Assembly: GCA_002495675.1 (NCBI GenBank)
Contig: DAGH01000001.1
Coordinates: 50,592-114,591 of the forward strand
DNA from: Euryarchaeota archaeon UBA182
GTDB lineage: Archaea; Thermoplasmatota; Poseidoniia; Poseidoniales; Thalassarchaeaceae
DNA length: 64,000 nucleotides
Direction of reading: 5' to 3'
The translations under genes and the position numbers were made by a program. Below, one piece after another: positions 12,822 through 50,754 of the stretch (the first letter of the stretch is position 1; the number at the start of each line of letters is the position of its first letter). The notes below the pieces were generated by a model. The model was not told the DNA's origin. It made no database searches and saw nothing but the letters and a program-made list of their open reading frames with translations.

Positions 12822-12864
12822 TCACCGTCGACATTATACCAAATTCTGAGATGGGTGGCATATT

Positions 12865-12941: not shown

Positions 12942-13022
12942 CCCAACCTCAATTTCACATAGATGGAAGATAACACTGGTCTACAATCCGATTTAATTGT
13001 GAGAATCCCCCCCTTATGAACA

Positions 13023-13099
13023 GGACCCATAGTGTAGCCTGGATATCACTCTAGCCTCCGGAGCTGGAAACCCGTGTTCGAATCGCGGTGGGTCCGCCA
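13023..13099 (+). tRNA. tRNA-Arg (anticodon CCG), CCA encoded
   Basis: Acceptor, D and T arms are identical to the upstream tRNA-Arg. Anticodon stem CTAGC/GCTGG with loop CTCCGGA. Confidence 0.85.
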
Positions 13100-13120
13100 T
13101 AGTTCACAGGCGCCGATCGA

Positions 13121-20089: not shown

Positions 20090-20096
20090 TACTCAA

Positions 20097-21368: not shown

Positions 21369-21409
21369 GCGTGCACGCGGGGCTGGGCATTCATGGATTG
21401 CTCGCTCAA

Positions 21410-22510: not shown

Positions 22511-22559
22511 GATTCACCCCAGTGTGGCAGGTTTTTGATACCATCTCTGCGTGTTGGCT

Positions 22560-22709
22560 CATCAATGTGGAGGTGGAAAACATTGGTAGGATTTTGTCCT
22601 ATAATTATTATATTTCGAGTAAATTGGTGCAAATATGTAGAATAAATACGGGGAGAGGATCTAAATAGAGACTATTAACTCAGAAGTATGCTAGGAGCGT
22701 GGATACGCT
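22560..22709. promoter_or_regulatory. AT-rich divergent intergenic region (purM <-> ABC substrate-binding gene) with several TATA-like elements
   Basis: Strings ataattattatattt, aataaata and actattaact, in contrast to the GC-rich flanks. No transcription start can be assigned by eye. Confidence 0.3.
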
Positions 22710-23882
22710 ATGAGAACAATGAAGTTAATTGCAACAATGATGACACTGAGCATGCTTGCAGCAGCCTTTGCTGGATGCCTCGGTGGAGATGATGATGAAG
22801 ACGAAAAGACGACTGTGAAGATCGGTTTCCTCAACCCGATCACTGGACCACTGGAGCCGAATGCTCCCGTGTTCACGTGGAGCGCGAACGAGGCAATCAA
22901 TGATCTGAATGCCATGTACGCTGACTACAACTTTGAGTTGATAGAGCAGGACTCCGGATGCGACGGTGCCGTGGCCGGCCCCGCTGCTCAGACCTTGGTT
23001 GACTCCGGTGTCTACGCTGTTGTGGGCGCGGCTTGCTCCGGTGCCTCGATGGCTGCCAACGGTGTGCTATCCGCTGCTGGGATCCCGATGATCTCCTACG
23101 CGAGCACCAACCCAGGCCTTTCGGACGCATCCGCATACCCGATGTTCTACAGGAACGTGCCAAGCGATGCAATCCAGGGCCCAGCAGGCGCTGATATGAT
23201 GAGAGACGCAGGCGTCGCAGACGGAGCTCTTGCAGTCTTCGGCATGACCAACGACTATGGCGCCGGACTCGCTGACGCTGTTGTCGATGCATGGGGATCG
23301 GACAAGCTATGTGACGTCGGTCGCTATGACTACGCTGAGACGGACACTGACTTCTCGGCAATCGCCGACCAGATGGCTGCCTCCACAACCTGCACTGCCG
23401 TTTACCTGTCATCCTACATCGCTGACGCGGCCCTAATCATCGAGGCTCTCAACGAAGCAGGATGGTCCGGGCACATCTTCGGCGGGGACGGCCCTGCTGG
23501 CGAGGGAATGTACGATGAGATGGAGGACGACTCCCTACTCAACGGCATGACCGTGACCCAGCCACGCGCTGGATCGAGCTTCGGCGACTTCAGCGAGCGC
23601 TATGACGCAAACGCGCCATCCGGTGGCATCAAGGCATACGACCTGACCACCTACGATGGTGTCATGATGGTCGGCATGGCTGCTGTGAACCACAACGGCG
23701 TGTCAGCCGATGAGGGAATCAAGGCTACCGGTAACGGATACGAGGGCGCCTCTGGCGTCATCAACTTCCTCGACAACGGTGACATTGGTGGCAACGGATA
23801 CGACATCTGCTCGTACGATGGTGTCGACCAATACACCTGCTCGAAGTACTGGACAGCCGAGGGCGGCGTCGCAACCGCCTGA
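22710..23882 (+). CDS. ABC transporter substrate-binding lipoprotein, type-I PBP (LivJ/LivK-like, amino-acid/amide family)
   Basis: Signal peptide plus lipobox LAAAFAGC, then an acidic linker. VKIGFLNPITGP and GAACSGAS patterns match the Leu/Ile/Val-binding protein family. It heads a liv-type operon. Confidence 0.8.
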   Translation: MRTMKLIATMMTLSMLAAAFAGCLGGDDDEDEKTTVKIGFLNPITGPLEPNAPVFTWSANEAINDLNAMYADYNFELIEQDSGCDGAVAGPAAQTLVDSGVYAVVGAACSGASMAANGVLSAAGIPMISYASTNPGLSDASAYPMFYRNVPSDAIQGPAGADMMRDAGVADGALAVFGMTNDYGAGLADAVVDAWGSDKLCDVGRYDYAETDTDFSAIADQMAASTTCTAVYLSSYIADAALIIEALNEAGWSGHIFGGDGPAGEGMYDEMEDDSLLNGMTVTQPRAGSSFGDFSERYDANAPSGGIKAYDLTTYDGVMMVGMAAVNHNGVSADEGIKATGNGYEGASGVINFLDNGDIGGNGYDICSYDGVDQYTCSKYWTAEGGVATA

Positions 23883-23916
23883 GTCTAAGATCAATTAGAT
23901 CTGGGAATTACGCAAC

Positions 23917-23950
23917 GCGCCGTGGTGGGCAATCCTGCCTACCACGGCGC
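23917..23950 (+). promoter_or_regulatory. Intercistronic stem-loop (15-bp stem including one G-U pair, 4-nt loop) directly after the substrate-binding gene
   Basis: gcgccgtggtgggca-atcc-tgcctaccacggcgc. It begins 35 nt after the stop at 23882. No oligo-T tract follows. Confidence 0.5.
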
Positions 23951-24016
23951 TTCACCTAACCCTTCTAGCCGGAGTGCCGGCTCCATTCCACAGAAGCCAG
24001 ACATCGGGGACGAAGC

Positions 24017-27000
24017 ATGACGCCACTCGAAAATTTTCGGAGTCGGTGGAGTCAACTCGAGAGATGGAAGCGCCGGTTGTTGGTCTCAGCATTCTTCTTC
24101 ATGGAGTCCACGGCTGGATTGCTGCGACAGTTCGGGGTATTGAACGGCATCGATCTCCTGTTGTTCGACAGCTTGCCAACAGACCTCGTCTGGCTACTCC
24201 AGACCTTCACCCTCATCTGCGTCGGATTCGGGCTGGTCAAGATCGCTTTCGATGACCTCAGTCCGGGCTGGATGCGCTCCAGTGTAATTGCCACATCCCC
24301 CATTCTTCTTTTCCTGTACGTCATTATGTCCCTCCACATCCTCTTGTTGGGGTTGGAAACATCCGCAACGGTATTGATCGACGTAGCATCGTTGGGGACG
24401 AATACCCTGACCTGGTCCTCGACCTACCTCTCGATCGCGGTCGGTCTTACCCTGACCTACAGCGTCCAGAGGTACGGGAACTTTGCACAGTCTGAGTTCT
24501 TCATGATAGGAATGTACGTCGGCGTGGCCTTGATGTGGACAGACTGGTTGTTTCCCCTGAACGAAATACCCTCAGACGGCCATCTCTCTTGGACCCTCTT
24601 CCTGTGGATGCTCTTTGGGGCATTCATCCTAACCGGTATAGCCGGCGTCATAATCGATCGGCTCGTCTACAAGGGCTTCAGGGACCGGAAAGCATCCCCA
24701 GACGTCATGATGATCGCCTCCCTGGGAGTCGCATTGGTCCTCAGGGCACTCACATATCTAAGATTCGGTGGCTCCACGCAGAGATTCGTCCCTGATGCGG
24801 ATTGGATGAGAGGAAGCCAATCATTCGAGTTCCCCACGGTACTCACTCGCCTCAACCTAGGTAAGAGGGACCTGGAGCCAGATGAGGTCTACACCTCGAT
24901 TGACTGCACTGAGTTGGATTCTATACCAGCAGTCGATATCATCACCTCTACGTGCGAGGGGGCAGCTCAGACCACGAACTACGCCTACAACAACGCATTC
25001 TTGCCGATTGTCAGCTTCGCAACGGTGTTCATCCTACTCGCCATCCTAACGAGGACCCGCCTCGGTAGGAGGATGAGGGCAGTCGCGGACAACCCAGAGC
25101 TGGCAGCCAGCAGTGGAATTAACGTCGAGAGAGTCCACATGACGAGCTCCTTCCTTTCCGCTGGAATATCCGGTGTCGGGGGCGGCATTTTTGGCATAAC
25201 TCTGCTCTTCAAGCCCATCACGGCATTCTCCCTACTACTCCCCTCTTTCGCAGTCATAGTGCTCGGGACCATCGGATCCCTACCGGGTGCGATAGCCGCA
25301 GCGGTCATTATCGGGTTCGTCCGGGCAGTTTCAGGTCCGGTCTTGATCGGTATAGGGAACCCAATCGGACGGTCTGGATACAGCGCCTTGGCCGAAGTGA
25401 TGCCCTACGCAATCATAATTGCAATACTCCTCATTGTTCCAAAGGGTATTGGCGACGCATATGACCGTTGGAAAATAGAGCGTCTCCGTGACAGAGCCAA
25501 GTCCACGAAGCCCCCAGATCACCGCCTTTCAGCCATCCTAGGACTCCTACTCGGCCCCCTAGGAGCACACCATTTCCACCAGCGCAGAGCCGGACGCGGA
25601 TTCAGCACACTTCTCGTGACATCCCTCGCCTTCTTCATCGGCAAAGCAACATCATTCATCCGAGACCACTCCTACCCAGCCGGCTCAGTGGTTGCCCCTG
25701 ATAGCGTGGATCCGGGGATAGCGGCGCAATGGGTGTCGCTCATCGAGACTGAGCAATCAGTAATATCCCTGATGGGGACTATTGGCGACATACTTTGGCC
25801 TTGGGTGCCCCTGTTGATATGGGCATTTTGTTTGTATGAGTCCTACTTGATCGCCAATCAACGATACAAAGACCCCATTCAGACACTCAAGGCGAGGTAC
25901 CACTCATTACTCTCCAGCATATCCACTTCGAGAGCCACAACTCGAGAAAAGGGCGACTCACCGATACTGAGGGATAGGATCGAATCACTCAGAACCAATC
26001 TCGACTACAGGCTTACGACCAGAACAACCTCCATCGGAGTTTGGATGGGAGAGAGATCCACAATTCATATGGAGAGAGTTGGGCTCACACAGGGGAGGAG
26101 AACCGAGGCTGGATCGAAATCTGCCTTCAGGATACTGATGGCGGTGCTCCTGCTCTTCGTGGTCTGGCTACCTGTGGACCCAGCCTCCAACTTCATGTTC
26201 GCCAAGACCCTCCAGGTGTCCAACTTGGTGACCTTCCTCTCAATCTACCTCATACTGTCCCTCTCGCTCAACTTGTCCACTGGGTACACAGGGCTGTTGA
26301 ACTTCGGTGTGATTTTCTTTGCGTCCATTGGGGCCATCGGAGTTGGAGTACTTACTGCCCCGAGCGACGTGGCGGGATATGGCTGGCCAATCATCCCGGC
26401 CTTGATATTCAGCATGATCGTAGCAGCCATATCTGGTTGGCTACTGGCCCTCCCGACAGCTCGGTTGAGGGGCGATTACTTCGCCGTTATCACGATCTCC
26501 CTGGGCGAGGTTGTCAGAATCCTCCTGTCGGGGGAGCCCCTCTTGAAGACCGGCACCACTCAGGGTGCCATAGGGGTTCAGAGGTACCCCCAGCCCCTCG
26601 AGGTGTGGTGGTTCTGCGGCCGTGGCAGCAAATTAGACGCCAACGGCGTGGAGCTCTCGCCCTTCGCGTGCAAGAGCGATGAGACCATTGACAGCGTAGC
26701 CAGGACGATTGGCGAGATCCTCAACTTCGGACAGCCCGCACCCTACTACCTCCTCCTGGCGATCATGGGCCTGATTTGCGTTGCAATCGTCTGGCGAGCC
26801 CTCACGATGCTGTACTCTTCACCGTGGGGCAGGATCCTCCGATCGATCAGGGAGGATGAGGACGTCGCACAGCACCACGGCCACGACGTCATGACCCACA
26901 AAGCCTCGGCACTCGCCGTCTCTGCCGCAATCGCAGCATTCGCTGGAGCATTGTTCGCGTGGTACCTCGGCTCCCTGCAACCCTCATTCATGCAACCCTC

Positions 27001-27496
27001 GAGAACGACATTCCTTGTCTGGGCAGCCTTCGTCATCGGAGGGGCGGGGAACAACAGGGGCATGCTTGTCGGAGCGATGATCATCACCTTGAACGAGTTC
27101 GTCATCAACAGACTCGTGGCAGCCCAGTCAAGCTCGAGCCAACCTCTTCACGAACTCGCTGTATCCATCGACACCGTTTTTGCATGGCTCGTCTCAGAAC
27201 CACTCCAAGTCGCCCTGCTTATGTTGACAGTATCCGTCATCGGGTATCTCTTCAAGAGGAACGCCATTGCCGAGTCGTCTGCATGGATGGGTTCAGTGTT
27301 CTTGCTGATGGTATGGCTCCTTCACCAGCGATCCATCGACGAGGTCTTCAGGGGCGACATACAAGTCAACCTCGCTTACGTCAAGGTGTTGATCATTGGC
27401 CTCATCATCGTGATATCCCTGAAGTTCAACGAGAGGGGCCTCCTCCCAGAGGTGCCATACCGGCCTGAAAGGCCAAGCAGAGGTGATCCGTCGTGA
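24017..27496 (+). CDS. Fused branched-chain-amino-acid-type ABC permease (LivH-like plus LivM-like) with a TM2-like domain in the linker
   Basis: A 1159-aa polytopic protein. The LivH-like half includes RLGRRMRAVADNPELAASSGINV. The LivM-like half includes RLRGDYFAVITISLGEV and WGRILRSIREDEDVAQHHGHDV. The linker contains LSAILGLLLGPLGAHHFHQRRAGRGFSTLL (TM2-domain pattern). Confidence 0.8.
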   Translation: MTPLENFRSRWSQLERWKRRLLVSAFFFMESTAGLLRQFGVLNGIDLLLFDSLPTDLVWLLQTFTLICVGFGLVKIAFDDLSPGWMRSSVIATSPILLFLYVIMSLHILLLGLETSATVLIDVASLGTNTLTWSSTYLSIAVGLTLTYSVQRYGNFAQSEFFMIGMYVGVALMWTDWLFPLNEIPSDGHLSWTLFLWMLFGAFILTGIAGVIIDRLVYKGFRDRKASPDVMMIASLGVALVLRALTYLRFGGSTQRFVPDADWMRGSQSFEFPTVLTRLNLGKRDLEPDEVYTSIDCTELDSIPAVDIITSTCEGAAQTTNYAYNNAFLPIVSFATVFILLAILTRTRLGRRMRAVADNPELAASSGINVERVHMTSSFLSAGISGVGGGIFGITLLFKPITAFSLLLPSFAVIVLGTIGSLPGAIAAAVIIGFVRAVSGPVLIGIGNPIGRSGYSALAEVMPYAIIIAILLIVPKGIGDAYDRWKIERLRDRAKSTKPPDHRLSAILGLLLGPLGAHHFHQRRAGRGFSTLLVTSLAFFIGKATSFIRDHSYPAGSVVAPDSVDPGIAAQWVSLIETEQSVISLMGTIGDILWPWVPLLIWAFCLYESYLIANQRYKDPIQTLKARYHSLLSSISTSRATTREKGDSPILRDRIESLRTNLDYRLTTRTTSIGVWMGERSTIHMERVGLTQGRRTEAGSKSAFRILMAVLLLFVVWLPVDPASNFMFAKTLQVSNLVTFLSIYLILSLSLNLSTGYTGLLNFGVIFFASIGAIGVGVLTAPSDVAGYGWPIIPALIFSMIVAAISGWLLALPTARLRGDYFAVITISLGEVVRILLSGEPLLKTGTTQGAIGVQRYPQPLEVWWFCGRGSKLDANGVELSPFACKSDETIDSVARTIGEILNFGQPAPYYLLLAIMGLICVAIVWRALTMLYSSPWGRILRSIREDEDVAQHHGHDVMTHKASALAVSAAIAAFAGALFAWYLGSLQPSFMQPSRTTFLVWAAFVIGGAGNNRGMLVGAMIITLNEFVINRLVAAQSSSSQPLHELAVSIDTVFAWLVSEPLQVALLMLTVSVIGYLFKRNAIAESSAWMGSVFLLMVWLLHQRSIDEVFRGDIQVNLAYVKVLIIGLIIVISLKFNERGLLPEVPYRPERPSRGDPS

Positions 27497-28284
27497 AAAC
27501 ACCCGCCCTGCGTGTCGATGGCCTCAGAAAGGAGTTCGGTGGACTCGTTGCCGTAAAGGATGTCTCGTTTGACGTTCAAGAGGGCGAATTCGTCGGTCTG
27601 ATCGGCCCAAACGGATGTGGTAAATCCACAACCTTCAATTGCATCTCGGGACTACTAGACCAGACCGAAGGCAGTGTTGAGGTCTTTGGGACCGATGTTT
27701 CGAAGATGCGGCCGGACCAGATCCAGAACCTCGGAATGACAAGGACGTTCCAGCATACTAGGCTCTGGCGTGAGATGACCGTCATTGAGAACCTACTTGT
27801 CCCCCCGAGGAATCAGTTCTCACCAAGTTTCCTCGACGTAGTAAGGTCAGGTCGCTCACATCCGTCTGAGGTCGATAGGCTCGAGAGGGCGTTCCAGGTG
27901 CTCGACCTACTTGAGGTCCCTCACATGGCGAACAACCTCACCAGCGAGCTCTCGGGCGGCCAGAGCAAACTCGTCGATATCGGACGATCGATGATGGGGG
28001 AACCACGCCTCCTACTCCTCGACGAGCCCGTCGCGGGGGTAGCAGGACCGTTGGCGATGAAGATATTCTCGAATCTGCGAAAAATTGTCTCGGAGACCGG
28101 AATCTCAGTACTGATTATTGAGCATAACATGGATTTCATCTTGAGACAAGGCGTCGATAGGATAGTTGTCATGAACGAGGGTGAGATACTCATGGTTGGG
28201 ACACCGGATGAAGTTAGGTCAAACAGAGCGGTAATAGAGGCATATCTTGGATCAGATGGCCGAGGCGGGGGTGTCGAGAATTGA
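27493..28284 (+). CDS. livG: ABC transporter ATP-binding protein, LivG-like
   Basis: Walker A GPNGCGKST, signature LSGGQSKLVD, Walker B LLLDEP. It overlaps the permease stop by 4 nt. Confidence 0.85.
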   Translation: MKTPALRVDGLRKEFGGLVAVKDVSFDVQEGEFVGLIGPNGCGKSTTFNCISGLLDQTEGSVEVFGTDVSKMRPDQIQNLGMTRTFQHTRLWREMTVIENLLVPPRNQFSPSFLDVVRSGRSHPSEVDRLERAFQVLDLLEVPHMANNLTSELSGGQSKLVDIGRSMMGEPRLLLLDEPVAGVAGPLAMKIFSNLRKIVSETGISVLIIEHNMDFILRQGVDRIVVMNEGEILMVGTPDEVRSNRAVIEAYLGSDGRGGGVEN

Positions 28285-39245: not shown

Positions 39246-40190
39246 ATGGAAATTAAGACCATTGTGACAATACTGTTTCTTTCCATGTTGGGACTTTCCC
39301 TAGGGGCCAATGCATCAACCATTTCCTCTGATGAGCCTTGGGTAGATGCCACTGAAGGAATCACCGGCGGATCAACGGCAATCACGTGGTTCCCTGCCAA
39401 CCAGAATAGCTCATCATCGAGTACCTTGGACCATGCTCAGACAATCATAGAGGTCTACACAGCAACTTGGTGCGAGACCTGCATTCCTGCTGAGGAAGCA
39501 TTGAATGCATCAATTACGGATCATGCTGTGAAAGTTGTGAAGTATCACAGGCACTTGTTCGAAACAGAGGACCCGTTTGGAAACAATAACACCGAAGGGC
39601 GTTGGCTTAGCAGGTACGGCCCTTCCGCGGTCCAGGCTGATTTCAATGCCAGGACTCCACCAACGGTAATTTTTGGTGGCGAAAGGATGCATATTGGCTC
39701 TCATCCGACCGCTGGCGTCTCTCTCGAGGAGGAGTACTCTATCAGCCTCAATAGCATCATGCGACCCCCGATATCCAATTCCTCAGAGTTCACATTCACA
39801 TGGGAGGATGGCACCTTTGAATGGTCTTGGAATTGGGAGGAAGACATCACTGCCTGCAGATCGAATTGCGATACTGTTTCCACAGAACTGTACATGATGA
39901 TTGTTGAGGACACAGCGTTTTTCCCAGAAGGATCTAACGGCGAAGAATATTATCACAGAATTTTAAGGGATGTCATTCCTTTAGGAAACAACTCGATCGA
40001 GTATATTCTTCCCCAGGCTTGGGACGACGATGATGTATCCATCATGATCGTCTTGGACTGGCAAGAGTCGCAGTCGGAAGAAACATTTCTTGAGGTTATA
40101 CCCTCACTCGCCGTAGAATTAGTAATAATAGGACTCGTCTTTACAGCCTTTATCACGCCAACAGAGGCAGAAAAACGCCGGGTTCAATAA
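39246..40190 (+). CDS. Secreted, C-terminally anchored protein with a thioredoxin-like CxxC motif
   Basis: N-terminal signal sequence. IEVYTATWCETCIPAEEAL (WCxxC). C-terminal TM is LAVELVIIGLVFTAFI. The function is inferred only from the motif. Confidence 0.45.
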   Translation: MEIKTIVTILFLSMLGLSLGANASTISSDEPWVDATEGITGGSTAITWFPANQNSSSSSTLDHAQTIIEVYTATWCETCIPAEEALNASITDHAVKVVKYHRHLFETEDPFGNNNTEGRWLSRYGPSAVQADFNARTPPTVIFGGERMHIGSHPTAGVSLEEEYSISLNSIMRPPISNSSEFTFTWEDGTFEWSWNWEEDITACRSNCDTVSTELYMMIVEDTAFFPEGSNGEEYYHRILRDVIPLGNNSIEYILPQAWDDDDVSIMIVLDWQESQSEETFLEVIPSLAVELVIIGLVFTAFITPTEAEKRRVQ

Positions 40191-40216
40191 CCCTCGATAT
40201 TTTTTGAACTTTTAGT

Positions 40217-43200
40217 ATGTCACGCAGAATGGGGTTGTCAGTTGAGGAAGTGCCCCCCGGCCCCCTGCCAAAGTGGGTTTTAGACCACGCCGTCAATCAG
40301 GCAAAGCTCAGTTTAACAAAGAGTGAAAATAGCAAGATACTCTTCATACACCCAAACCAAGCATCGAGGAATGAAGTTCTGGACAATCTGAGTCGTTCCG
40401 TAGCGGTTTTCGACAGATCAGCGCACCATACAATCCATTCACTGTCGCGAGTGATTGGAGAAGACCTGCGAATCAAAAGACCCATCGAAGCTGACCCGGT
40501 GTTGGAAGAGTCGATACATATGCTGGCAATTCGAGCTGCGGAAAATCTCAGATTCCCAATCCTCCATCCGGACAATAATAGAAAATGGCACAGAGGGAAA
40601 ACGGAAGCGATCAGGGGACTCCACAACGCATTATTGTTCGAGAACCTACTGCAATCATGGGATGGAGCCCATGAGGCACTAGAGTTCAACAAAATACTGG
40701 AGGAAGCTTCCAAGCCTTTGGGCGGACTCCACCCCGATTTATTCATGTTGGAAGTCATCAAGCAACTCGAAAATGAGAATCAGGACACACCCTTCACCCT
40801 CGAGGGGGCAGATGGCATATTGATGCTGGACCACGACCCAACGCTCCCAAAATTAGAATTGAGATTTGTTAGAAGTTTACTCCGCTATCTACCCATTCAC
40901 CAATTATCTCACACAGGAAGTTACCGACTCGGAGAACACGGATTTCAAATTGAAGACATATTCCCTGTGGACAAAAAGGAACAATTGCCTAGTTGGATTC
41001 CCGCCCACACACCCTCATCAACAAGACCTAGTCACGAACCGCGTGAGATCCCGATTCGACTCGAAAGGCAGACCGTTGCCACCGTTAAACAATTTATGAA
41101 AAAAAAGCGAGAGCAGGATCCAAATGCCTCGATTATGATTATCGATCCGTCCTGGGCAAAGAGAGAACACGTATGGAACAGATGTATTTCATCGATCCGG
41201 TCCATGATCGATCCAAACATAGAATCAAACCCTAAGAATCCTATCCTGACATCGTTAATTTCTGACATGACAATCGCCATTGGCAGCCGCGGATTCTCGC
41301 TAGAAAAGATTCGAGAGTTGGGAAAAAGGGGAATTGTGTTCGAATTGTTCGAAACCCCAACGCACCCGGAGGACCCAGACATTATCCCATATTTTCATCC
41401 AGACCTCATCGAAGCTTCAGCAATAAAAAGTCACATAGTTGGCGGACAAGGTTCACTCGTCGAATGGCTCAAATCCCTCTCAATGACATCTGATGATGAT
41501 AGGGACTCACTAAGAAGAGAGCAAACCCAATGGTGGATGCTGATCGTAGCGAACAATCTCTCTCCGCTACTGTCAAAGGAAGATCATGAGACCTTGAGAA
41601 ATCCAAAATTCAGAAGGGGATGTATGAGTGGGGTGGATCTACCATTACCCTCACAATCATCCGATGCCAATGATTGGTTGGAGAGATACCTGCAGATCAT
41701 TGAGGCAAGGGGCCTATCTCACGACAGTGATGCCATCGCAAATGATTGTGAAGAAGCTATAGAGTACGTGACTAGGAGAATGAGGAAATTCGAAATGATG
41801 ACTAGGTCATTGGACCTCGAGACCACAACCACGGGGGAAAAATGGGTAGAAAGAACTCAAAGAATACTTTCGGGATTCAAAAGGAAAAACAGCAACGTCA
41901 GGGACCCAAACATTCGCATCATGACCCCCAAACAGGCGCTTGGATGCACAGCAGACCTAGTCTTACTCACACACCTTTCGGTAGACTGGTCCATGCAAGT
42001 GAATAAACCTCCCTATCTCAGTGAACAAGATAGACTCACGCTGAATATATCAAGTCCGGATAATGAGATAAAGTCAGCCAGACACTCGATGCAGCATCTC
42101 CTCAACGCAGCACCTGAGGTATGTGTGATTCATGCGACCAGCGATGACCTAGCACCCCCATCATTCATTCTCGATGAGTGGTTGAGTCAAAGACCTGAGC
42201 AGGATGCCAGACATCTGGAGACAGAATTAGAGCCACACGGCCCACGGGACCGATTGATCAAAGATGGTAGGAGAATAATGAGGGGGGAGCCAGCCTCGAG
42301 AAAACCACTCAGTGGCTTCGGCCCGCTGCTGAATCTAGACCTTGACTTGGCTAATGATATAGCATCTAGGTCCCCTACAATACCAGATTTTGATGGCTTC
42401 CTGCCCGATAGTTCAGTCCCCAGAGTCATAACTCCACCAATCAAAGATATCGCAAATCCAACCTCAAAGGCCAAGAGAAACCCTCCAAGGAAGAATGGAA
42501 GATGGCCCGTAATCGGTGCGAGGAGCACCGGATTCTTGAGTGCTACCGTAGACCCTAGGCCAATCCAAGGATGGAAAACCGATATACACCAAAGAGAGTC
42601 AAGGCAGGGGCACACCGGTATCAGGATGAATCGGAAAAAATGGTCCCCACACAGATTGAATAATTGGCTGGAATGCCCGAGAAAAGGATGGTTGACAGAC
42701 AAGCAGAACCTCTCAGAGGATGAGCGAACAAACCAAGACCTCGACTCAAGAACCTACGGTAACATATTGCACGGGATCCATCATGATGTAATGTTTGAGA
42801 TCTTGGGATTGAAGGAAGGGGAGGAATGCACGTTGAACGACCTACATTCTCGAAAAAAATCCATCAAATCAAGCAATCACAACCAAGACGAGGTCATGAT
42901 GATAGCCTTGACATCGTTATCAAGGAGGGCACCGTGGCTATCGAGATCTAATGCAACTTGCACTCAGAAACTTTGGATGCTCACCGGGATGAATACAGAT
43001 GAGTGGGAAACCTGGCTGGCTAACCCCAAGCCGATCAGACCCAACGGGAGGGTAGGATCGATAGTTGATGCCGAGATGCGAACGGAAGGGTCAGCTCCGA
43101 TAGCGATAGAATGGGTCCTATCCAAGGATTCCGCGAAAATCGAGATTGAAATACCAAATGAATTGGTAGAAAAACACAGGAAGATCATGCCATTCACGGC

Positions 43201-43786
43201 TAGTGGAGTTATCGACAGAGTAGATCTCGTACCCTTCGACGCACAAGGGGAACAGTGGCACGACGAAGAGGGATCCAACCAAGTTGCGCCCCTCAGGTTG
43301 TTCGGATCTGGCTGGAAACCAAGGCGCATGGTCATTATCAGGGATCTAAAGTCGAGGGAGGATTTCGAAAAGCCGAAGGATAGGCATGAAAGGGCATTGT
43401 TTGGCGAACTACAGCTGGGACTCTATTCCAGAGCATGGGAATTATCACATCCAGGCGACCTTGTGGTTGGAGCTGGCATCACCACTTTGGGCTTTGACTC
43501 GAATCATTACATAGAGGTCTCAGGGCTTGCACCAAGTAGGGTCTTCGAGGGTAGTTTCGGGGAGGCCACAACATTGACCCGCGACATGTTTCGTTTTGCT
43601 GATGAAGGACCAGATACCAAATCAGATTACTTTCGTGCTTGGTTGACCCATAGAATGACTGTGGCATCAAGCGTTGTTCACAATGCAAATTTAGGCCTAT
43701 ACAACCCCACCCCCGATCCATCTATCTGTCGTTATTGCAGAGTGTCCAGTGTGTGTGACCAAGGTAAATATGGAGGACATTCGTAA
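40217..43786 (+). CDS. addB: AddB-like subunit: inactivated helicase-like body plus a C-terminal Fe-S PD-(D/E)XK nuclease
   Basis: 1189 aa with no Walker A. The C-terminal nuclease has WLECPRKGWL (Cys1), ILHGIHHDV, GVIDRVDLV, IIRDLKS, ELQLGLYS (QxxxY) and CRYCRVSSVC (CxxCx5C). Its stop overlaps the start of the next gene (TAATG). Confidence 0.75.
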   Translation: MSRRMGLSVEEVPPGPLPKWVLDHAVNQAKLSLTKSENSKILFIHPNQASRNEVLDNLSRSVAVFDRSAHHTIHSLSRVIGEDLRIKRPIEADPVLEESIHMLAIRAAENLRFPILHPDNNRKWHRGKTEAIRGLHNALLFENLLQSWDGAHEALEFNKILEEASKPLGGLHPDLFMLEVIKQLENENQDTPFTLEGADGILMLDHDPTLPKLELRFVRSLLRYLPIHQLSHTGSYRLGEHGFQIEDIFPVDKKEQLPSWIPAHTPSSTRPSHEPREIPIRLERQTVATVKQFMKKKREQDPNASIMIIDPSWAKREHVWNRCISSIRSMIDPNIESNPKNPILTSLISDMTIAIGSRGFSLEKIRELGKRGIVFELFETPTHPEDPDIIPYFHPDLIEASAIKSHIVGGQGSLVEWLKSLSMTSDDDRDSLRREQTQWWMLIVANNLSPLLSKEDHETLRNPKFRRGCMSGVDLPLPSQSSDANDWLERYLQIIEARGLSHDSDAIANDCEEAIEYVTRRMRKFEMMTRSLDLETTTTGEKWVERTQRILSGFKRKNSNVRDPNIRIMTPKQALGCTADLVLLTHLSVDWSMQVNKPPYLSEQDRLTLNISSPDNEIKSARHSMQHLLNAAPEVCVIHATSDDLAPPSFILDEWLSQRPEQDARHLETELEPHGPRDRLIKDGRRIMRGEPASRKPLSGFGPLLNLDLDLANDIASRSPTIPDFDGFLPDSSVPRVITPPIKDIANPTSKAKRNPPRKNGRWPVIGARSTGFLSATVDPRPIQGWKTDIHQRESRQGHTGIRMNRKKWSPHRLNNWLECPRKGWLTDKQNLSEDERTNQDLDSRTYGNILHGIHHDVMFEILGLKEGEECTLNDLHSRKKSIKSSNHNQDEVMMIALTSLSRRAPWLSRSNATCTQKLWMLTGMNTDEWETWLANPKPIRPNGRVGSIVDAEMRTEGSAPIAIEWVLSKDSAKIEIEIPNELVEKHRKIMPFTASGVIDRVDLVPFDAQGEQWHDEEGSNQVAPLRLFGSGWKPRRMVIIRDLKSREDFEKPKDRHERALFGELQLGLYSRAWELSHPGDLVVGAGITTLGFDSNHYIEVSGLAPSRVFEGSFGEATTLTRDMFRFADEGPDTKSDYFRAWLTHRMTVASSVVHNANLGLYNPTPDPSICRYCRVSSVCDQGKYGGHS

Positions 43787-46700
43787 TGATTCGACTCAAC
43801 TCCGGTCAGAGGTTAGCCCTCAATCTCGACTCGCACATAGCAGTGGACGCAGGAGCGGGAACAGGAAAAACCAGAACTATCGTTGAGCGCGTGATCCAAC
43901 ACTACCTCTCACGAAGGCAGAGGGCTACAGAAATACTTCCAATGCCGGAAAGACCTCGAAGAATATCACTCAGTAGAGTGAGAAACGATACGAATGAACT
44001 TACGGACCCAAGCGAGTGGGAGGGACTCCTCCCAGGGGAGGTTGTACTACTTACATTCACAAATTTAGCAGCGGAGGAAATGAAAGGAAGGCTTCGAGAT
44101 AGAATAAAGCAACTCTCAACTGGTTCGTTGGGCTCAACCCTAGAGGCCGACCCAAGACTGCGTTCGGAGGCAGACAAAGAGCAATTGATGATGCTGCTTG
44201 AAGATGCGCCAATTGGCACCATAGATTCATTTTTCACTAGACTAATCAGACCACATCTCGCCTCTCTCGGTGAACTCATGGATGCAGAGATAGTCACCGA
44301 TGCGCAGAGGGGAACATTGGAAATGGACACCATTGATGCATTCTGGTCACTTCCATCCAACCCGAATCATTTCACATACCTTGACTCTGAATTATTGCAA
44401 ACCGACCAAACTAGAAGGATACTTGAATCCAGAGATCGTCTGATTAAGACTTACTCAGGTAGAAACAGGCTCAACAAAATTTTGAACGGCCTTATGTCAA
44501 ACTCAATATTGGTTGAGGAAGCGACGAGAAACCTCACTGTCGGCGACTCATTCTCGGCATCACTCTTGACAAAAGCCATGCTTAGCAGCGTCTATTTACC
44601 AAAAATAGACCAAGCATTCACTGAACTACAATCAGATTCTAGAGAAACTATTGAGATACTCAAGAGCTATCGACACATTTTCTCTAGATCTGGTTGGAAC
44701 GAGGGTACCAGAGTGGACATGTTGGATATCCTGGCCTCTCAAAATCCAGAGTCCCACGAGGATAAAATCTACTGGATTTCAAAACTCCTTGCAATCTCCA
44801 GAAAGAATCTATTTGGCGATGGGAAGACATTCCCGAGGGACAGCATACCAACATCAGAAACATGGCCATCTGGCATATTGACTTACACAGGGATGGGGTC
44901 AAGCAAGGAAGCCAAGTTGGCCAAGAAAAAACTACAACAATCGATTTCTAAAATCAAACGAACGATGTCGAGCAAGGTAAACACACAGATCATGGAGATT
45001 GCGAAGATATTCATGTGCTATATCGAAGTACCAGGATTGGCCCATATTTCATACCCCCCACCAAGTAGAGTCAGTGTTGAGGAGAATAAGGATTCATTTG
45101 CTCTTGATCTAGGCTCAGAATCCAGACACCTCCAAGATCTTAGCACGGCGATGATTGGACTTCTGGAAATTTCAAGGAATTTGAAGTTCAGACGAAAACT
45201 CAGGGATTTTGACGACGTTTCAAGACTTGCTGGGGAACTCCTCCTCCTCAGATGTCCCCGTGTTTGCAAGATAAGCCACTTCTATCCACGCAAAGTAATA
45301 GAAATACTCGATCATGGTCCCTCAGAACCGTGGCTGGATGACCACATTGAAATGGCATTTTATGAGTTGCAAAAATCAATCGAATCCGGAAGCGGTGATC
45401 ATTTACAACAAAATGCCGAAAGGGCATATTCTGACTTGAACAAAAGATGGGCTACCCTGAGGTCCATACGACGAAGGTTTCGGGCTTTTATCATCGATGA
45501 GGCTCAGGACAACTCGCCCCTGCAGTGGAGACTGTTAGCGAGACTATGGGGACCACGAGAGATTAAACTCGATGAGAAAAACATTCCAGAGACACCCTGG
45601 CAACCTACGATTTGTTATGTGGGAGATGTCAAGCAGTCAATCTACGCTTTCAGGCACGCTGAGGCATCGAGATTTCGGGAATTTACAAATCATTTGAGAT
45701 CGATAAACAACTGGGAGTTGAGGAACATCCCGGCTCTGACCCATGAGCCCCCACTGAGGACCAAGGAGATGAGTAGAGACCCACGACACGATCACAACTC
45801 ACCCTTTACCACTGCTTCGAATATGAGGATCGCATCTGGAAGGGACCTCGAGCCGTGGGTCAGATTCGATCAGGTTGATAGCGTCGATGAGAAGTTAGTT
45901 GAAAGTGACATAATCGCTAGGAAGGAGGGTCTGATTCGTTTAGATGTCAATTTCAGGACGAAATCCGGTTTGCTGGAGGAAATGAACACTTGGTGGAGAG
46001 AGATATTCTCCGAAAAACACAGGACAATTCCTGAAGGTGGATGGTATGCGGATGCGCAAGACCTTAGATCCCCTAGTCCGAATGATCTGACTTACGGAGA
46101 GATGGAATCCACGGACCCTGCACTGAGTGCAATTGAAGAATTGCAGGGAGAAGGCCATCTGGAGTGGATATGTCCAGTTATGGATCCTGACCTCTCAGAC
46201 CCATCGCATGACTTGAGCATTCAAATGAATCCCCTTGCAAGCGGCCTATCAGATAGAATCGATAGAAACGCCAGATTGATCGCTTTGAGGGTAAAGGCTC
46301 TCATGGACGGGACCCCCGTCAAGATCAAGGGGGCAAGCGGAGAGTGGAAAGTGATAGAATCAGACCCAGTAGAGCCTGACGATATCATGATCCTGATGGC
46401 AACCAGAACAGGAATTAGGGACGCATTATTGAGGGAATTTAGACAATTGGAAGTACCCGCTCATGCGGACTTGGAGGGCGATCTGTTCGATCAGCCTGTA
46501 GCGATGGCCATAGAAGCGCTGGTCCAATTGTGTGCGCGCCCAAACTCACGGCACCATCTAGCTTGGGTGGCAAGATCACCCCTGATAGGCATGGCAGATA
46601 GTGAATTGGACGATTTCCTTGCCTCTGCATATCAAGAACAGAACTTACTCAAGAGCCTATCAGATTATCTTGGAGATACCCCATTGGGCAGTTTGGCCAG

Positions 46701-48543
46701 TAGATGGCTGGACCTATCACGATCCGATAGAATCGTCCAAATGTTGGAAGAGACATTGGACCATTCGGATCTCTTAATCGCCTATCCAGATGACTCTGAT
46801 AGGCAGAATGCCGAGCGAGCAGTCACGGTAATCAAAGAAACTCTAGACAGAGAAGAGGGATCACTGTTGGCAGTTGCCGATGCCCTGAGGTCCCTCAGAG
46901 AGGACAATCGAGGTGGAGTCCGAAGCATAACGAAACCTCCATCTGATACAGTCAGGCTGATGTCGATCCACAAGTCGAAGGGCCTGGAGGCAAAGGTCGT
47001 GATCTTAGCAGACCTGTTCAGCGAGAGGCAAGTCGGGAATAAGCATCAGTCGCAGATGCGTTTTGGCGTATCCTCAGATATATTCTCTGGGAATCCGAAG
47101 CCATGGGGAGGGAATCGGACATTGAGATCAGGCGTATGGAATTATTCGAGTTTAATCAACAGATCAAGAAGGGACGCAGAGAACAGGAGATTACTATACG
47201 TCGCAGCGACCAGGGCAAGGGACAGTCTGATAATCGTGGGAGCACCTGATGGAAACAAATCATCAGAGTGGATAAACGGGCAAGGAGTATCATTTACCCA
47301 CGATTCTAGGAAATATCCGCCATTGGGGCACATGATAACCAACTCAAAGAGACATCTAGATTGGGTGAATCGGAATCATGATTCCCAATGGTTGACATCA
47401 GACGACAAAGAAAGTACTGAGGTGCCATTCGAGAGAGGAACGATAGTTTTCGACCCTATTTCGCTCCATGAGGACCATGATGGGACCAAAGGAAGGAAAG
47501 GAACAACATTCGTTTTGCTACACAGCCACGAGTGCATGTCCCAAAGCAAAAACAATACTACGCCATATATCCGAATGAAAAAGGCGTTAGATGCTATTTC
47601 ACTATCCCCCGATAGGGAGAAACTCGACTTTTGTCCCGTCGAATCTCCACCGAGATACATAAGGATCGCACCGTCATCCTTGCATTTTCCAACAGACGAT
47701 TCAGATCCCGGTATACTCGAACAGAGGAAACGAAAAAGGAATTTTAATGAGACGTTGACACCTACAGAATTGGGCACCATTGTTCACCGAGTGGTGGAGG
47801 TCGGTATTGGCAATTGTGGGACAGATCCAACCCCTCCCCTACCACACTCTTGGACGACTAGGAGACCAAATCGATTGAACGATAGGACTCTTCTGAACAC
47901 CGTACTCAAAGAGACTGGGGTAGGACCAACGAACGAATCCATGATAGAGGCGATTTCTGAATTGATGAAGAACATCGAGGATGGTTACCTGGGTAGAATC
48001 ACTAGAGGTGAGACCGTCAAAGGACACACATTGCAAGGACTTCGGACAGAACTTCCGTTCTTGCTCTCGAAGGAAGTGGAGTTTGAACCCCTGATTCATA
48101 GTCTGTGGACTCCGGATGGCAAGTGGGCAACGACCTTGGAAAGTAGAGCAATTGTCCAGATGGAGGGGTTCATCGACATTGTGATCTGCACTCAGGATCC
48201 AGAGGGTAGGCCAACGATGAGGGCGGTCGACATAAAGACCGACTCAACAATGAGAACGTTGTTGGCAGAGCATAATAGCGATCCCCATAACCCAAGCCTT
48301 GACTTTGAGAATCGAATGTTACTCCGTCATGGGATTCAACTCGCAATATATCATAATGCACTTGTAGCGATGAACGAGCAACTCCCGATAAAAGCGCGGA
48401 GATTGCTACTGCCTCCTGCAATAGTCTGGGCAGGGAACGGAAGGATGGTAGAATACCCAATCGAAGTCTTGGAAAATCTCAATTCGATGCTCGAATCTAT
48501 CCTCGTCGAGACGGCTAGGGAGCACTTAGCTCCCTCGAGTTGA
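43786..48543 (+). CDS. addA: AddA/RecB-like SF1 UvrD-family helicase with a C-terminal RecB-type nuclease
   Basis: Helicase motifs are VDAGAGTGKTRT (I), FIIDEAQDNSPLQW (II), CYVGDVKQSIYAFRHA (III), SIHKSKGLEAKVVIL and RLLYVAATRARDSLII (VI). Nuclease motifs are GTIVHRVVE, GFIDIVIC, AVDIKTD and IQLAIYHN. 1585 aa. Confidence 0.85.
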   Translation: MIRLNSGQRLALNLDSHIAVDAGAGTGKTRTIVERVIQHYLSRRQRATEILPMPERPRRISLSRVRNDTNELTDPSEWEGLLPGEVVLLTFTNLAAEEMKGRLRDRIKQLSTGSLGSTLEADPRLRSEADKEQLMMLLEDAPIGTIDSFFTRLIRPHLASLGELMDAEIVTDAQRGTLEMDTIDAFWSLPSNPNHFTYLDSELLQTDQTRRILESRDRLIKTYSGRNRLNKILNGLMSNSILVEEATRNLTVGDSFSASLLTKAMLSSVYLPKIDQAFTELQSDSRETIEILKSYRHIFSRSGWNEGTRVDMLDILASQNPESHEDKIYWISKLLAISRKNLFGDGKTFPRDSIPTSETWPSGILTYTGMGSSKEAKLAKKKLQQSISKIKRTMSSKVNTQIMEIAKIFMCYIEVPGLAHISYPPPSRVSVEENKDSFALDLGSESRHLQDLSTAMIGLLEISRNLKFRRKLRDFDDVSRLAGELLLLRCPRVCKISHFYPRKVIEILDHGPSEPWLDDHIEMAFYELQKSIESGSGDHLQQNAERAYSDLNKRWATLRSIRRRFRAFIIDEAQDNSPLQWRLLARLWGPREIKLDEKNIPETPWQPTICYVGDVKQSIYAFRHAEASRFREFTNHLRSINNWELRNIPALTHEPPLRTKEMSRDPRHDHNSPFTTASNMRIASGRDLEPWVRFDQVDSVDEKLVESDIIARKEGLIRLDVNFRTKSGLLEEMNTWWREIFSEKHRTIPEGGWYADAQDLRSPSPNDLTYGEMESTDPALSAIEELQGEGHLEWICPVMDPDLSDPSHDLSIQMNPLASGLSDRIDRNARLIALRVKALMDGTPVKIKGASGEWKVIESDPVEPDDIMILMATRTGIRDALLREFRQLEVPAHADLEGDLFDQPVAMAIEALVQLCARPNSRHHLAWVARSPLIGMADSELDDFLASAYQEQNLLKSLSDYLGDTPLGSLASRWLDLSRSDRIVQMLEETLDHSDLLIAYPDDSDRQNAERAVTVIKETLDREEGSLLAVADALRSLREDNRGGVRSITKPPSDTVRLMSIHKSKGLEAKVVILADLFSERQVGNKHQSQMRFGVSSDIFSGNPKPWGGNRTLRSGVWNYSSLINRSRRDAENRRLLYVAATRARDSLIIVGAPDGNKSSEWINGQGVSFTHDSRKYPPLGHMITNSKRHLDWVNRNHDSQWLTSDDKESTEVPFERGTIVFDPISLHEDHDGTKGRKGTTFVLLHSHECMSQSKNNTTPYIRMKKALDAISLSPDREKLDFCPVESPPRYIRIAPSSLHFPTDDSDPGILEQRKRKRNFNETLTPTELGTIVHRVVEVGIGNCGTDPTPPLPHSWTTRRPNRLNDRTLLNTVLKETGVGPTNESMIEAISELMKNIEDGYLGRITRGETVKGHTLQGLRTELPFLLSKEVEFEPLIHSLWTPDGKWATTLESRAIVQMEGFIDIVICTQDPEGRPTMRAVDIKTDSTMRTLLAEHNSDPHNPSLDFENRMLLRHGIQLAIYHNALVAMNEQLPIKARRLLLPPAIVWAGNGRMVEYPIEVLENLNSMLESILVETAREHLAPSS

Positions 48544-50073: not shown

Positions 50074-50754
50074 ATGTCCGAGGAACGTGTTCAGCAGTTG
50101 GAAGGGAGACTTGCAGAGGAAACCCAACGCTTGGAGAAGCTGTATGTTGCATACAGAGGGCTTGAGGAAGAACTTCAGGAGAAAAATGCAGTCATTGACG
50201 TCTTGGAGAAAGAAGCCATAGACAAGGAGATAGAGCGAGAGGGGCTGGAGTCATTATTGAGTGAGAAGGACTCTAGGATAAGAGATCTGGAAATGGATCA
50301 TGCTAAAGCGAGAAAGAGGATTCAGCACCTAGAACCCGATCTCGAGAAAATGGAAGAGATGTACACCAGAGAGTCAGCAAGGCTAGGGCGCGTTTTCGAG
50401 GTAGCCGAGGAATTGGACGAATCACTGAGAGTCTCACAGGCAGAACTCAATGCCAGAGACAATTGGTATGAGTCCCACATGAGTCTTTTCGAGCAACTCA
50501 ATGAGGCAATCCAGACTCGATTTAACATGATTGAGAGAGCGGTCGAAGCTGTGAAAGAACAACAAGAAAAACAGGCAGCTTTCAAAGACCAGATGGAGAA
50601 CGCACAAGACGCCGTCTCCAAGGAAAAAATAGAGGATCCCGGCGACGGTTTGGAAAAAATGAAGGTCGCTGAACTTAGGGCGATTCTTATCGAGCAGGGC
50701 ATGGATGCCAAAGGGAAGAAAGCAGATCTGATAGAACGTATTCGCAAGGCCTAA
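50074..50754 (+). CDS. Coiled-coil protein with a C-terminal SAP/Rho_N-like helix-extended-helix domain
   Basis: About 190 aa of heptad-rich E/K/L sequence, followed by MKVAELRAILIEQGMDAKGKKADLIERIRKA. Confidence 0.6.
   Translation: MSEERVQQLEGRLAEETQRLEKLYVAYRGLEEELQEKNAVIDVLEKEAIDKEIEREGLESLLSEKDSRIRDLEMDHAKARKRIQHLEPDLEKMEEMYTRESARLGRVFEVAEELDESLRVSQAELNARDNWYESHMSLFEQLNEAIQTRFNMIERAVEAVKEQQEKQAAFKDQMENAQDAVSKEKIEDPGDGLEKMKVAELRAILIEQGMDAKGKKADLIERIRKA

Follow-up and report, generated by a model that had tools for sequence, protein, structure and literature searches.

We analysed a stretch of 64,000 nucleotides from Euryarchaeota archaeon UBA182 (order Poseidoniales, family Thalassarchaeaceae; contig DAGH01000001.1, positions 50,592–114,591), referred to as the window, in which two large adjacent open reading frames (ORFs), ORF1 and ORF2, occupy positions 40217–48543. 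Very probably the two encode the subunits of an AddAB-type heterodimeric helicase–nuclease and belong to the core genes that the Poseidoniales have inherited vertically. This assignment builds on the architecture of the proteins, the conservation of their catalytic residues, structural matches specific to each subunit, gene coupling, order-wide synteny and native base composition. The locus contains the following features, numbered by their position in the window (nt, nucleotides; aa, amino acids):

40191..40216, + strand: intergenic spacer of 26 nt between the upstream gene orf314 and ORF1, A/T-rich, containing CCCTCGATATTTTTTGAACTTTTAGT
40217..43786, + strand: ORF1, AddB-like subunit, 1189 aa; predicted inactivated UvrD-like helicase fold followed by a C-terminal PD-(D/E)XK nuclease with a putative 1+3 cysteine staple
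40217..42628, + strand: ORF1 aa 1–804, degenerate superfamily 1 (SF1) helicase-like region
42629..43771, + strand: ORF1 aa 805–1185, AddB-type 'iron-staple' nuclease domain
43784..43788, + strand: TAATG stop/start overlap of ORF1 and ORF2 (1 nt), read from the sequence
43786..48543, + strand: ORF2, AddA-like subunit, 1585 aa; SF1A UvrD-type helicase with a C-terminal RecB-family nuclease
43786..47250, + strand: ORF2 aa 1–1155, helicase core, domains 1A/1B/2A/2B
47743..48411, + strand: ORF2 aa 1320–1542, RecB-family PD-(D/E)XK nuclease (Pfam PDDEXK_1)

An earlier note, made from the letters of this DNA, had described the two ORFs and their TAATG overlap, and both were confirmed from the sequence. 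All the motifs it quoted are present as stated, as is the lack of a Walker A motif in ORF1. The motor motifs of ORF2 comprise AGAGTGKT at aa 22 (motif I GTGKT, with K28), DEAQD at 571–575 (motif II), motif III at aa 613 (GDVKQSIYAFRHA; GDVKQSIYAFR, 613–623), HKSKGLE at 1062 (motif V) and YVAATRAR at 1138 (motif VI). Its nuclease motifs are GFIDIV (1461), VDIKTD (1481) and QLAIY (1518), which belong to a residue set of H1334, D1464, D1482, K1484, Q1518 and Y1522. ORF1 carries ECPRKGW (819), IDRVDLV (999), RDLKS (1042), QLGLY (1066) and CRYCRVSSVC (1171), and its nuclease-domain residues are C820, H852, D1000, D1043, K1045, Q1066, Y1070, C1171, C1174 and C1180. The Walker A pattern [AG]xxxxGK[ST] was found nowhere in the whole of ORF1.

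The TAATG overlap suggests that ORF1 and ORF2 are translationally coupled. At other Poseidoniales loci the equivalent junction is mostly a 4-nt ATGA overlap, and the two genes are adjacent in nearly every locus from which both were recovered, overlapping by 1–16 nt where starts were called cleanly. Neither is a chance ORF: more than 80 species conserve both at full length, and their catalytic residues and cysteines do not vary. The spacer upstream of ORF1 is a possible archaeal TATA-like promoter of a near-leaderless addB–addA transcript, and a small hairpin followed by a T-rich stretch lies at 40180–40193. A promoter and terminator scan performed at chance level, its consensus being that of bacterial sigma-70, which is unsuited to an archaeon.

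ORF2 has the hallmarks of an AddA-type subunit. It matches the Pfam families UvrD-helicase (E = 4.9e-32), UvrD_C (4.4e-13) and PDDEXK_1 (1.9e-5, aa 1320–1542), as well as UvrD_C_2 and AAA_19, and its best NCBIfam models are addA_alphas (134.2 bits), addA_Gpos (131.3 bits) and recB (124 bits). The top PDB sequence match by phmmer is Bacillus subtilis AddA (3u44_A, E = 2.3e-11, partial coverage), followed by RecB (2.2e-7). To this we added an AlphaFold2 model of aa 1–1200, which leaves out the nuclease domain (predicted local distance difference test (pLDDT) 73.4; predicted template-modelling score (pTM) 0.65). The four best Foldseek matches of this model are all AddA chains (E 1.6e-22 to 3.4e-18, template-modelling (TM) scores 0.44–0.50), with chain A of 4cej (4cej_A) at the top (E = 1.6e-22, TM 0.49/0.50), while RecB (5e-16), UvrD (2e-9) and AdnB (7e-7) rank lower. 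The motor residues K28, D571/E572, Q617 and R1143 are invariant in 20–28 homologues of 36–77% identity, throughout which the six nuclease residues are also kept. The motor therefore looks active, as judged from its residues.

At 1585 aa, ORF2 is about 350 aa longer than the 1232-aa B. subtilis AddA (3u44_A), in agreement with the earlier note, which had put the excess at several hundred residues. By aligned coordinates, motifs I and Ia are about 34 residues further apart than in AddA; about 150 extra residues precede motif III, about 100 follow it, and about 80 fall in the C-terminal part. The extra length thus appears to be scattered over at least four places and not to form a single added domain. 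In the model, an expanded all-helical accessory region at about aa 180–560 is well predicted, and low-confidence loops lie at about 587–692 and 800–822; no additional Pfam domain was found in ORF2. The novel insertions that the earlier note had considered possible find tentative backing in this helical region and these loops, but not in any recognisable extra domain.

ORF1 is far harder to place by sequence. Its sole Pfam match is PDDEXK_1 (aa 1039–1181, E = 1.1e-9), and a single-sequence phmmer search of the PDB returned no match. An exhaustive search of 1.84 billion representative proteins with the ORF1 profile gave just 312 matches, all apparently family members or fragments; about 40 are full-length at 1160–1375 aa and the remainder are fragments. 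Judged by these matches, the ORF1 family appears closed. In public databases such proteins are annotated merely as 'PD-(D/E)XK nuclease family protein' and are missed by all AddB models, and ORF2-type proteins carry the equally generic label 'UvrD-helicase domain-containing protein'.

The predicted structure of ORF1 points to AddB. An AlphaFold2 model was built from a 39-sequence family alignment (pLDDT 85.8, pTM 0.63), and its five best PDB matches in Foldseek are all chain B of B. subtilis AddAB (E 2.6e-20 to 1.8e-17, TM 0.45–0.50), aligned over the full length with about 10% of residues identical. The best of them is 4cei_B (E = 2.6e-20, TM 0.49/0.50); AdnA (8e-14), UvrD and then RecC (2e-10) follow. 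As ORF1 and ORF2 find their best matches in AddB and AddA, respectively, the pair maps reciprocally onto the two chains of one complex. Together with the nuclease alignments described below, these matches uphold the single-motor, dual-nuclease AddAB identity proposed in the earlier note. By analogy with the B. subtilis complex, ORF1 and ORF2 would form a heterodimer.

The nuclease domain of ORF1 aligns with AddB in register. With hhalign, aa 805–1185 match a haloarchaeal AddB-like nuclease at 96.4% probability (E = 1e-9), the first cysteine, the histidine, IDRVD, DxK, QLxxY and CxxCx5C all falling in line, and the match to Paenibacillus AddB reaches 83% (E = 8.6e-6). Across 39 ORF1 homologues of 23–90% identity, no variation is seen at C820, H852, D1000, K1045, Q1066, Y1070, C1171 or C1174, and conservation of D1043 and C1180 is 90% or higher. 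The CPRxGW and CxYCx5C motifs occur in nearly every locus from which an ORF1-type gene was recovered whole. This pattern is consistent with a 1+3 cysteine iron staple around an active-type nuclease set, and the cysteines would, by analogy with AddB, bind an iron–sulfur (Fe–S) cluster.

In the N-terminal region of ORF1, a proline-rich loop, VPPGPLP (aa 12–18), occupies the position of Walker A between the first strand (residues 7–12 in the model) and the first helix (19–34). E10, P13, G15, P18 and W20 are invariant in a 17-sequence alignment. Most likely, by analogy with AddB and RecC (PMC3321194), this region serves as a module that scans single-stranded DNA and recognises a Chi-like sequence.

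Family HMMs (hidden Markov models) rank the reference proteins identically for both subunits. On the AddA side, haloarchaeal AddA scores 153 bits, Paenibacillus AddA 97 and Escherichia coli RecB 53; on the AddB side, haloarchaeal AddB scores 24.8, Paenibacillus AddB 6.4 and E. coli RecC 0.5.

Several observations weigh against an AddAB-type pair of housekeeping genes. ORF1 matches no NCBIfam family at E ≤ 0.1, the AddB/RexB models (TIGR02773, TIGR02786, TIGR02774) included, and a profile of 17 ORF1 family members matches no PDB chain at E ≤ 10. Because of the latter, the AddB assignment of the N-terminal region rests on predicted structure; for the first 800 residues, it would lean on about 10% identity and a TM score of about 0.5. 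ORF2 scores far under the curated equivalog cutoffs (860.75 bits for the AddA model TIGR02784, 707.65 bits for the AddA model TIGR02785 and 696 bits for recB), and is therefore a distant homologue and not an equivalog by NCBI criteria. Of the HMMs proposed as a check in the earlier note, UvrD-helicase, UvrD_C and PDDEXK_1 were matched, the AddA models ranked first on ORF2 but below their cutoffs, and no AddB model was matched. The ORF2 model is poorly confident at the ATP-site motifs (aa 15–27 and 567–628). ORF1 also lacks the Walker A site of B. subtilis AddB, whose ATP site stabilises Chi recognition (PMC3321194). This site is missing also from the haloarchaeal AddB-like protein and is present in Paenibacillus AddB. 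Cromie is said to have reported in 2009 that just a subset of AddB proteins carries a Walker A motif, so that the motif may not be a defining one for all of the family. Finally, ORF1 and ORF2 are the fastest-evolving genes of their block, with 33–43% identity to their Thalassarchaeaceae counterparts against 56–86% for the neighbours. The aminotransferase, threonine aldolase, M20 peptidase and gene g413 of the conserved block all evolve more slowly across loci L010–L080 of our comparison. Such speed is unusual for a plain housekeeping enzyme and may stem either from relaxed constraint or from an arms race against viral inhibitors.

We compared the pair with its characterised and sequenced relatives. 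With B. subtilis AddAB (PDB 3U44, 4CEH/4CEI/4CEJ) it shares a two-subunit, addB-then-addA design. AddA, like ORF2, joins an SF1A UvrD-type motor to a RecB-family nuclease, and AddB, like ORF1, combines an inactivated helicase fold with an active nuclease that carries one N-terminal and three C-terminal staple cysteines. Identity in the structural alignments is about 10–15%. The differences are as clear: beyond its nuclease domain ORF1 is undetectable by sequence and has no Walker A ATP site, and ORF2 is longer through its expanded accessory region and loops. In most Poseidoniales, although not in the window, four staple cysteines also lie on the AddA-like nuclease, and the host recombinase would be RadA instead of RecA. 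Paenibacillus addB–addA shows the same gene order and stop/start overlap as ORF1 and ORF2.

The closest sequence relatives found outside the family are archaeal. On plasmid PHS3 of Halobacterium salinarum R1 (NC_010368.1, 203712–210396; locus L081), OE_RS12980 (PD-(D/E)XK, 1018 aa) and OE_RS12975 (UvrD-helicase, 1211 aa) have the same gene order and overlap, and the match to ORF2 reaches 27% identity (E = 1e-27). The AddB-like protein of this megaplasmid pair resembles ORF1 in lacking Walker A and in carrying 1+3 cysteines. The haloarchaeal pair is nonetheless much nearer to bacterial AddAB, its AddA scoring 357 bits on TIGR02784 and its AddB matching the AddB TIGRFAMs (1e-16). It is plasmid-borne and smaller, and its AddA-like nuclease lacks the cysteines, whereas the pair described here is chromosomal, syntenic across its order and far more divergent. 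Overlapping PD-(D/E)XK and UvrD-helicase pairs, generically annotated, were also seen on about 30 other haloarchaeal plasmids. The Poseidoniales pair is thus a new archaeal member of the AddAB group, very divergent and present across its order.

We then asked whether the pair is native to its genome. The earlier note had reported from hand counts a lower G+C content (GC) than in mcm, which direct measurement did not reproduce: GC is 0.479 in ORF1 and 0.475 in ORF2, against 0.487 in mcm, 0.490 in gatE, 0.477 in the threonine aldolase gene and 0.493 in the M20 peptidase gene, and among the genes compared only the liv permease, at 0.555, stands above this range. The tetranucleotide profile of 40217–48543 correlates with the rest of the window at r = 0.90 (8-kb windows: mean 0.864, standard deviation 0.056), and the codon usage of both ORFs is among the most typical in the window. 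Neighbouring genes are archaeal housekeeping genes, as the earlier note had said, and include those for MCM, GatE, Trm1, ribosomal protein L10P/P0, Spt5, FtsZ and PAC2.

Relatives of the pair are widespread in one order. At least 269 clusters are homologous to ORF2; the 120 listed are 1554–1684 aa long and 36–90% identical, one of them being named Candidatus Thalassarchaeaceae. A relative of the pair is encoded by 247 GTDB species representatives, and synteny was examined in the best 80 of these 247 species loci. All 80 come from metagenome-assembled genomes (MAGs) of Poseidoniales/Marine Group II (MGII) or of unclassified Euryarchaeota/Thermoplasmatota; the closest, UBA487 (90% identity), is classified as Candidatus Poseidoniales. 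Wherever the contig reaches, all 80 keep the order threonine aldolase, orf314, AddB-like, AddA-like, M20 peptidase, SAP-domain protein.

The most divergent example examined, locus L084 (ENA ERZ26167216, a 3.0-Mb contig, 1–23495), has 71% GC and an ORF1 relative of about 25% identity. It keeps the block of MCM and GatE through AddB-like, AddA-like, M20 and SAP genes together with the ATGA overlap; its GatE is 48% identical to that of the window, and its pair has the base composition of its host. The base composition of the host genome has thus changed completely, and that of the pair has changed with it. The contig exceeds the other Poseidoniales contigs compared in length, and this relative may represent an unusual high-GC lineage related to the Poseidoniales. 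The gene pair is an old one that Candidatus Poseidoniales (Marine Group II) inherited vertically as part of its core genome, and it predates the diversification of the order. An interdomain transfer, if there was one, would have been ancient, the pair being too divergent to point to a bacterial donor. Carriage by viruses or mobile elements was considered separately and rejected: among IMG/VR viral contigs, the pair had only two weak, generic matches to the UvrD core.

These data bear directly on the possibility that the pair is foreign to the genome, either through recent horizontal acquisition from Bacteria, as the earlier note had proposed, or through a bacterial/archaeal assembly chimera. 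What speaks for such an origin is that the AddAB/RecBCD architecture is typical of Bacteria while archaeal resection is canonically assigned to Mre11-Rad50-HerA-NurA (PMC7690668), that Reuter et al. (2010; PMC2887965), citing Cromie 2009, mention transfer of addAB 'even into the archaea', and that the window also holds a bacterial-type NAD-dependent ligase. However, GC matches the flanks, mcm and gatE, the tetranucleotide correlation exceeds the window average, codon usage is among the closest to that of the window, and the same block recurs in 80 of 80 species loci (36–90% identity) and in the 71%-GC relative, with no viral carrier. The reference bacterial AddA, from Paenibacillus, is 22% identical to ORF2 over aligned columns and the B. 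subtilis match is partial (E = 2e-11); identity to bacterial AddA this low leaves no room for a recent donor. Independent MAGs are colinear with the contig on either flank of the pair, which excludes a chimera, and the tetranucleotide profile of the pair is native. We therefore regard a foreign origin of either kind as extremely improbable. A RecBC(D)-type or AdnAB-type enzyme, in which ORF1 would be a non-catalytic scaffold like RecC or a second motor like AdnA, draws on the missing Walker A, which ORF1 shares with RecC (PMC3321194), on the near equality of the recB and addA models on ORF2 (124 versus 131–134 bits), and on AdnA and RecC being the next structural matches of ORF1. E. coli RecBCD indeed performs the same overall task with the same fold families, RecB corresponding to ORF2 (second-ranked structural match) and RecC to ORF1 (lower-ranked), and RecC too has no ATP-binding motifs. 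But the nuclease-like domain of RecC is inactive (PMC3321194) and without an Fe–S cluster, whereas ORF1 retains the full invariant PD-(D/E)XK set and four cysteines, and no RecD-like gene adjoins the pair at the locus. Mycobacterial AdnAB is a heterodimer of two UvrD-like-plus-nuclease subunits with its Fe–S cluster in AdnA, the AddB equivalent (PMC8789073). AdnA is the second-best structural match of ORF1 and AdnB a merely distant one of ORF2 (E = 7e-7); AdnA keeps Walker A and B motifs (PMC3321194), of which ORF1 has neither, and without Walker A it cannot be an AdnA-like ATPase or second motor. Since Foldseek and profile scores place AddA/AddB above RecB/RecC and AdnB/AdnA for both subunits, this classification is very unlikely.

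Two further readings concern what the proteins do and whether they act together. That they act independently, ORF2 as a stand-alone UvrD–Cas4-like helicase–nuclease and ORF1 as an unrelated large nuclease, is prompted by the many genomes with stand-alone genes combining a UvrD-type SF1 helicase, a PF12705 nuclease and Cas4-like cysteines (Hudaiberdiev et al., 2017; PMC5704561). Most Poseidoniales homologues of ORF2 bear such cysteines and resemble these fusions, although ORF2 of the window has lost them. Yet the fusions are stand-alone or found in non-conserved contexts, while the ORF2 type is always coupled to an AddB-like partner, lying next to it in nearly every locus with both genes and overlapping it where starts were called cleanly. 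The two genes co-occur from 23% to 98% identity, and each best matches a different chain of the same crystal complex, so that we attach very little credence to independent action. Less unlikely, although still improbable, is a primary role in antiviral or anti-foreign-DNA defence, with the pair degrading linear invader DNA in the manner of RecBCD defence or Gabija and not serving recombinational repair. RecBCD and AddAB degrade linear phage DNA, both subunits outpace the flanking genes (33–43% versus 56–86% identity) as would fit an arms race with viral inhibitors, the RecBCD inhibitors GamS, gp5.9 and Abc2 appear among the PDB matches of the ORF2 model, and ORF2 is weakly GajB-like. Against this, the PADLOC matches to GajB, none above 58 bits, are confined to the generic UvrD core and score lower than those to AddA; no defence family in PADLOC matches ORF1, and neither a GajA-like gene nor any other defence partner adjoins the pair. 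In every species locus examined, the pair lies at a single fixed position amid housekeeping genes, whereas defence islands are typically variable. Repair and defence are, moreover, not exclusive roles in bacterial AddAB and RecBCD. Membership of a catalogued defence system such as Gabija was rejected for the generic GajB core match and the lack of a cognate partner.

For an AddAB-type heterodimer, a mechanism can be proposed on the model of B. subtilis AddAB, from which complex formation, Fe–S binding, the assignment of strands to nucleases, Chi-like control and the hand-off to RadA are carried over by homology. The complex would bind a blunt or nearly blunt end of double-stranded DNA, with the cysteine-stapled nuclease domain of ORF1 aiding end binding. 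The single SF1A motor of ORF2 would then move 3'→5' and unwind the duplex, the RecB-type nuclease of ORF2 cutting the 3' strand and the ORF1 nuclease the 5' strand. Meanwhile the inactivated helicase-like N-terminal region of ORF1, which has no nucleotide-binding loop, would most likely scan the 3' strand for a Chi-like sequence. RadA, the archaeal recombinase, would thereby receive a 3' single-stranded tail, and linear DNA without the signal, such as viral DNA, would be degraded as a side role. Archaeal Mre11-Rad50 and HerA-NurA have the same presumed task of producing 3' tails at double-strand breaks for RadA (PMC7690668), but as a hexameric HerA translocase with a NurA nuclease they are unrelated to the pair in proteins and mechanism. 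None of their genes was found within the 64-kb window.

Comparison across the order uncovered a second set of staple-like cysteines. In most Poseidoniales, the AddA-like nuclease is bracketed by four cysteines of Cas4/AddB type: an upstream (D/E)CxRRxW motif precedes the His motif, and the cysteines of the C-terminal tail are spaced either CxxCx9C or CxCxxC. They are present in the AddA-like proteins of loci L010–L080 and L084 (genes at about locus positions 10001–14900). Upstream and tail cysteines show strict covariation: one upstream cysteine (CxRRxW) goes with three in the tail (1+3), whereas the 16 species with CPRCHW have exactly two tail cysteines in a CxxC tail (2+2); two species show 2+3. 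This compensatory relocation is what would be expected of four ligands in one metal cluster. ORF2 of the window and the AddA-like proteins scored from loci L001–L009 (eight of nine) have neither the upstream cysteine nor the tail motif (0+0) and retain all nuclease catalytic residues.

A neighbour-joining tree (1550 columns, 200 bootstraps) separates these patterns. The zero-cysteine clade is monophyletic (100%) and sister to a cysteine-bearing MGII clade (97.5%). The species with 2+2 also form a monophyletic group (100%), nested topologically among 1+3 forms, and the 71%-GC lineage, with a CxxC…C tail, falls outside all other groups (100%). The simplest reading of these patterns is that the second staple is ancestral to the AddA-like subunit and was lost once in the clade of the window. 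In AddAB the cluster has been described only in AddB (PMC3378879, PMC3321194) and in AdnAB only in AdnA (PMC8789073). No such cysteine set was found in the nuclease regions of haloarchaeal and Paenibacillus AddA, and we found no two-staple arrangement described for characterised AddAB, AdnAB or RecBCD enzymes. The novelty of the AddA staple is provisional, the AddA proteins compared being the haloarchaeal and Paenibacillus ones and stand-alone UvrD–Cas4-like fusions being already known (PMC5704561).

More tentatively, the ancestral Poseidoniia enzyme may have been a 'double iron-staple' AddAB, with both nucleases binding a four-cysteine metal cluster, that served as the principal double-strand-break resection machine; we consider this possible but less likely than not. 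If it were true, the enzyme would supply RadA, either replacing HerA-NurA or working beside it, and the clade of the window, which lost the staple and kept the active site, would together with the 2+2 subgroup provide natural experiments on the role of the staple. The series of four, four rearranged and zero cysteines on the AddA-like subunit could help to clarify the debated function of iron–sulfur staples in AddB, Dna2 and Cas4-type nucleases.

Marine Group II archaea, which are still uncultured, count among the most abundant archaeal groups in surface waters of the ocean. Resection of DNA breaks is poorly defined in mesophilic archaea, and an order-wide bacterial-style machine is a testable candidate for both break repair and degradation of linear viral DNA in MGII. 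It also raises the question of how an AddAB-type machine would hand over to archaeal RadA. AddAB-like genes are not without precedent in archaea: their transfer there has been suggested (PMC2887965), and haloarchaeal megaplasmids carry clear pairs. The MGII/Poseidoniales literature searched contained no paper linking the lineage with AddAB or Rad50, and two large comparative genome studies of MGII (Rinke 2019, Tully 2019) do not mention the gene pair. In a 2020 review of DNA repair in archaea, resection is called 'historically unclear' and AddAB goes unmentioned (PMC7690668). Of the earlier note's proviso that the pair might be an ordinary, vertically inherited feature already described for this lineage, vertical inheritance was found, but a prior description was not found in the literature searched.

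Two other genes of the conserved block stand close to the pair. The gene orf314 (39246–40190, + strand) encodes a protein with hydrophobic segments at its N- and C-terminus and a WCETC motif, which has no match in Pfam or PADLOC. It lies directly upstream of the AddB-like gene in every sufficiently long locus, at 30–91% identity, and is inverted in the 71%-GC relative. The gene at 50074–50754 (+ strand) encodes a coiled-coil protein of 226 aa with a SAP/HeH DNA-binding domain at its C-terminal end (PF02037, 1.4e-10); in most loci this gene follows the M20 peptidase, two genes downstream of the pair. The SAP domain is best known from eukaryotic chromatin proteins.

The true compositional outlier of the window is a cluster for a branched-chain amino-acid ATP-binding cassette (ABC) transporter at about 20000–28000, especially 22710–23882 and 24017–27496. 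Its GC is 0.55–0.57, its GC at third codon positions 0.68–0.69 and its tetranucleotide correlation with the rest of the window 0.68, and it includes a fused 1159-aa double permease (BPD_transp_2 twice). As possible acquired DNA, this cluster has a stronger case than the AddAB pair.

The window also encodes a second 'bacterial-style' DNA enzyme at 7369–9627 (+ strand), LigA, an NAD-dependent DNA ligase of bacterial type with an adenylation domain (1e-53) and OB, HhH and BRCT domains. The mechanically called start of its ORF overlaps tRNA-Pro(GGG) (7376–7453, + strand), and its Pfam match begins at aa 56; because of the overlap, the true LigA start is probably downstream. Paralogues of the proteasome assembly chaperone-like PAC2 lie at 9624–11063 (− strand) and 17667–18443 (+ strand), and a DnaQ-like RNase_T exonuclease at 11633–12520 (− strand). 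Finally, a 1879-aa ORF at 89–5728 (+ strand), with a DUF4129 match and a Big_1 score of 34.4 bits just under the cutoff of 34.9, probably encodes a surface protein.

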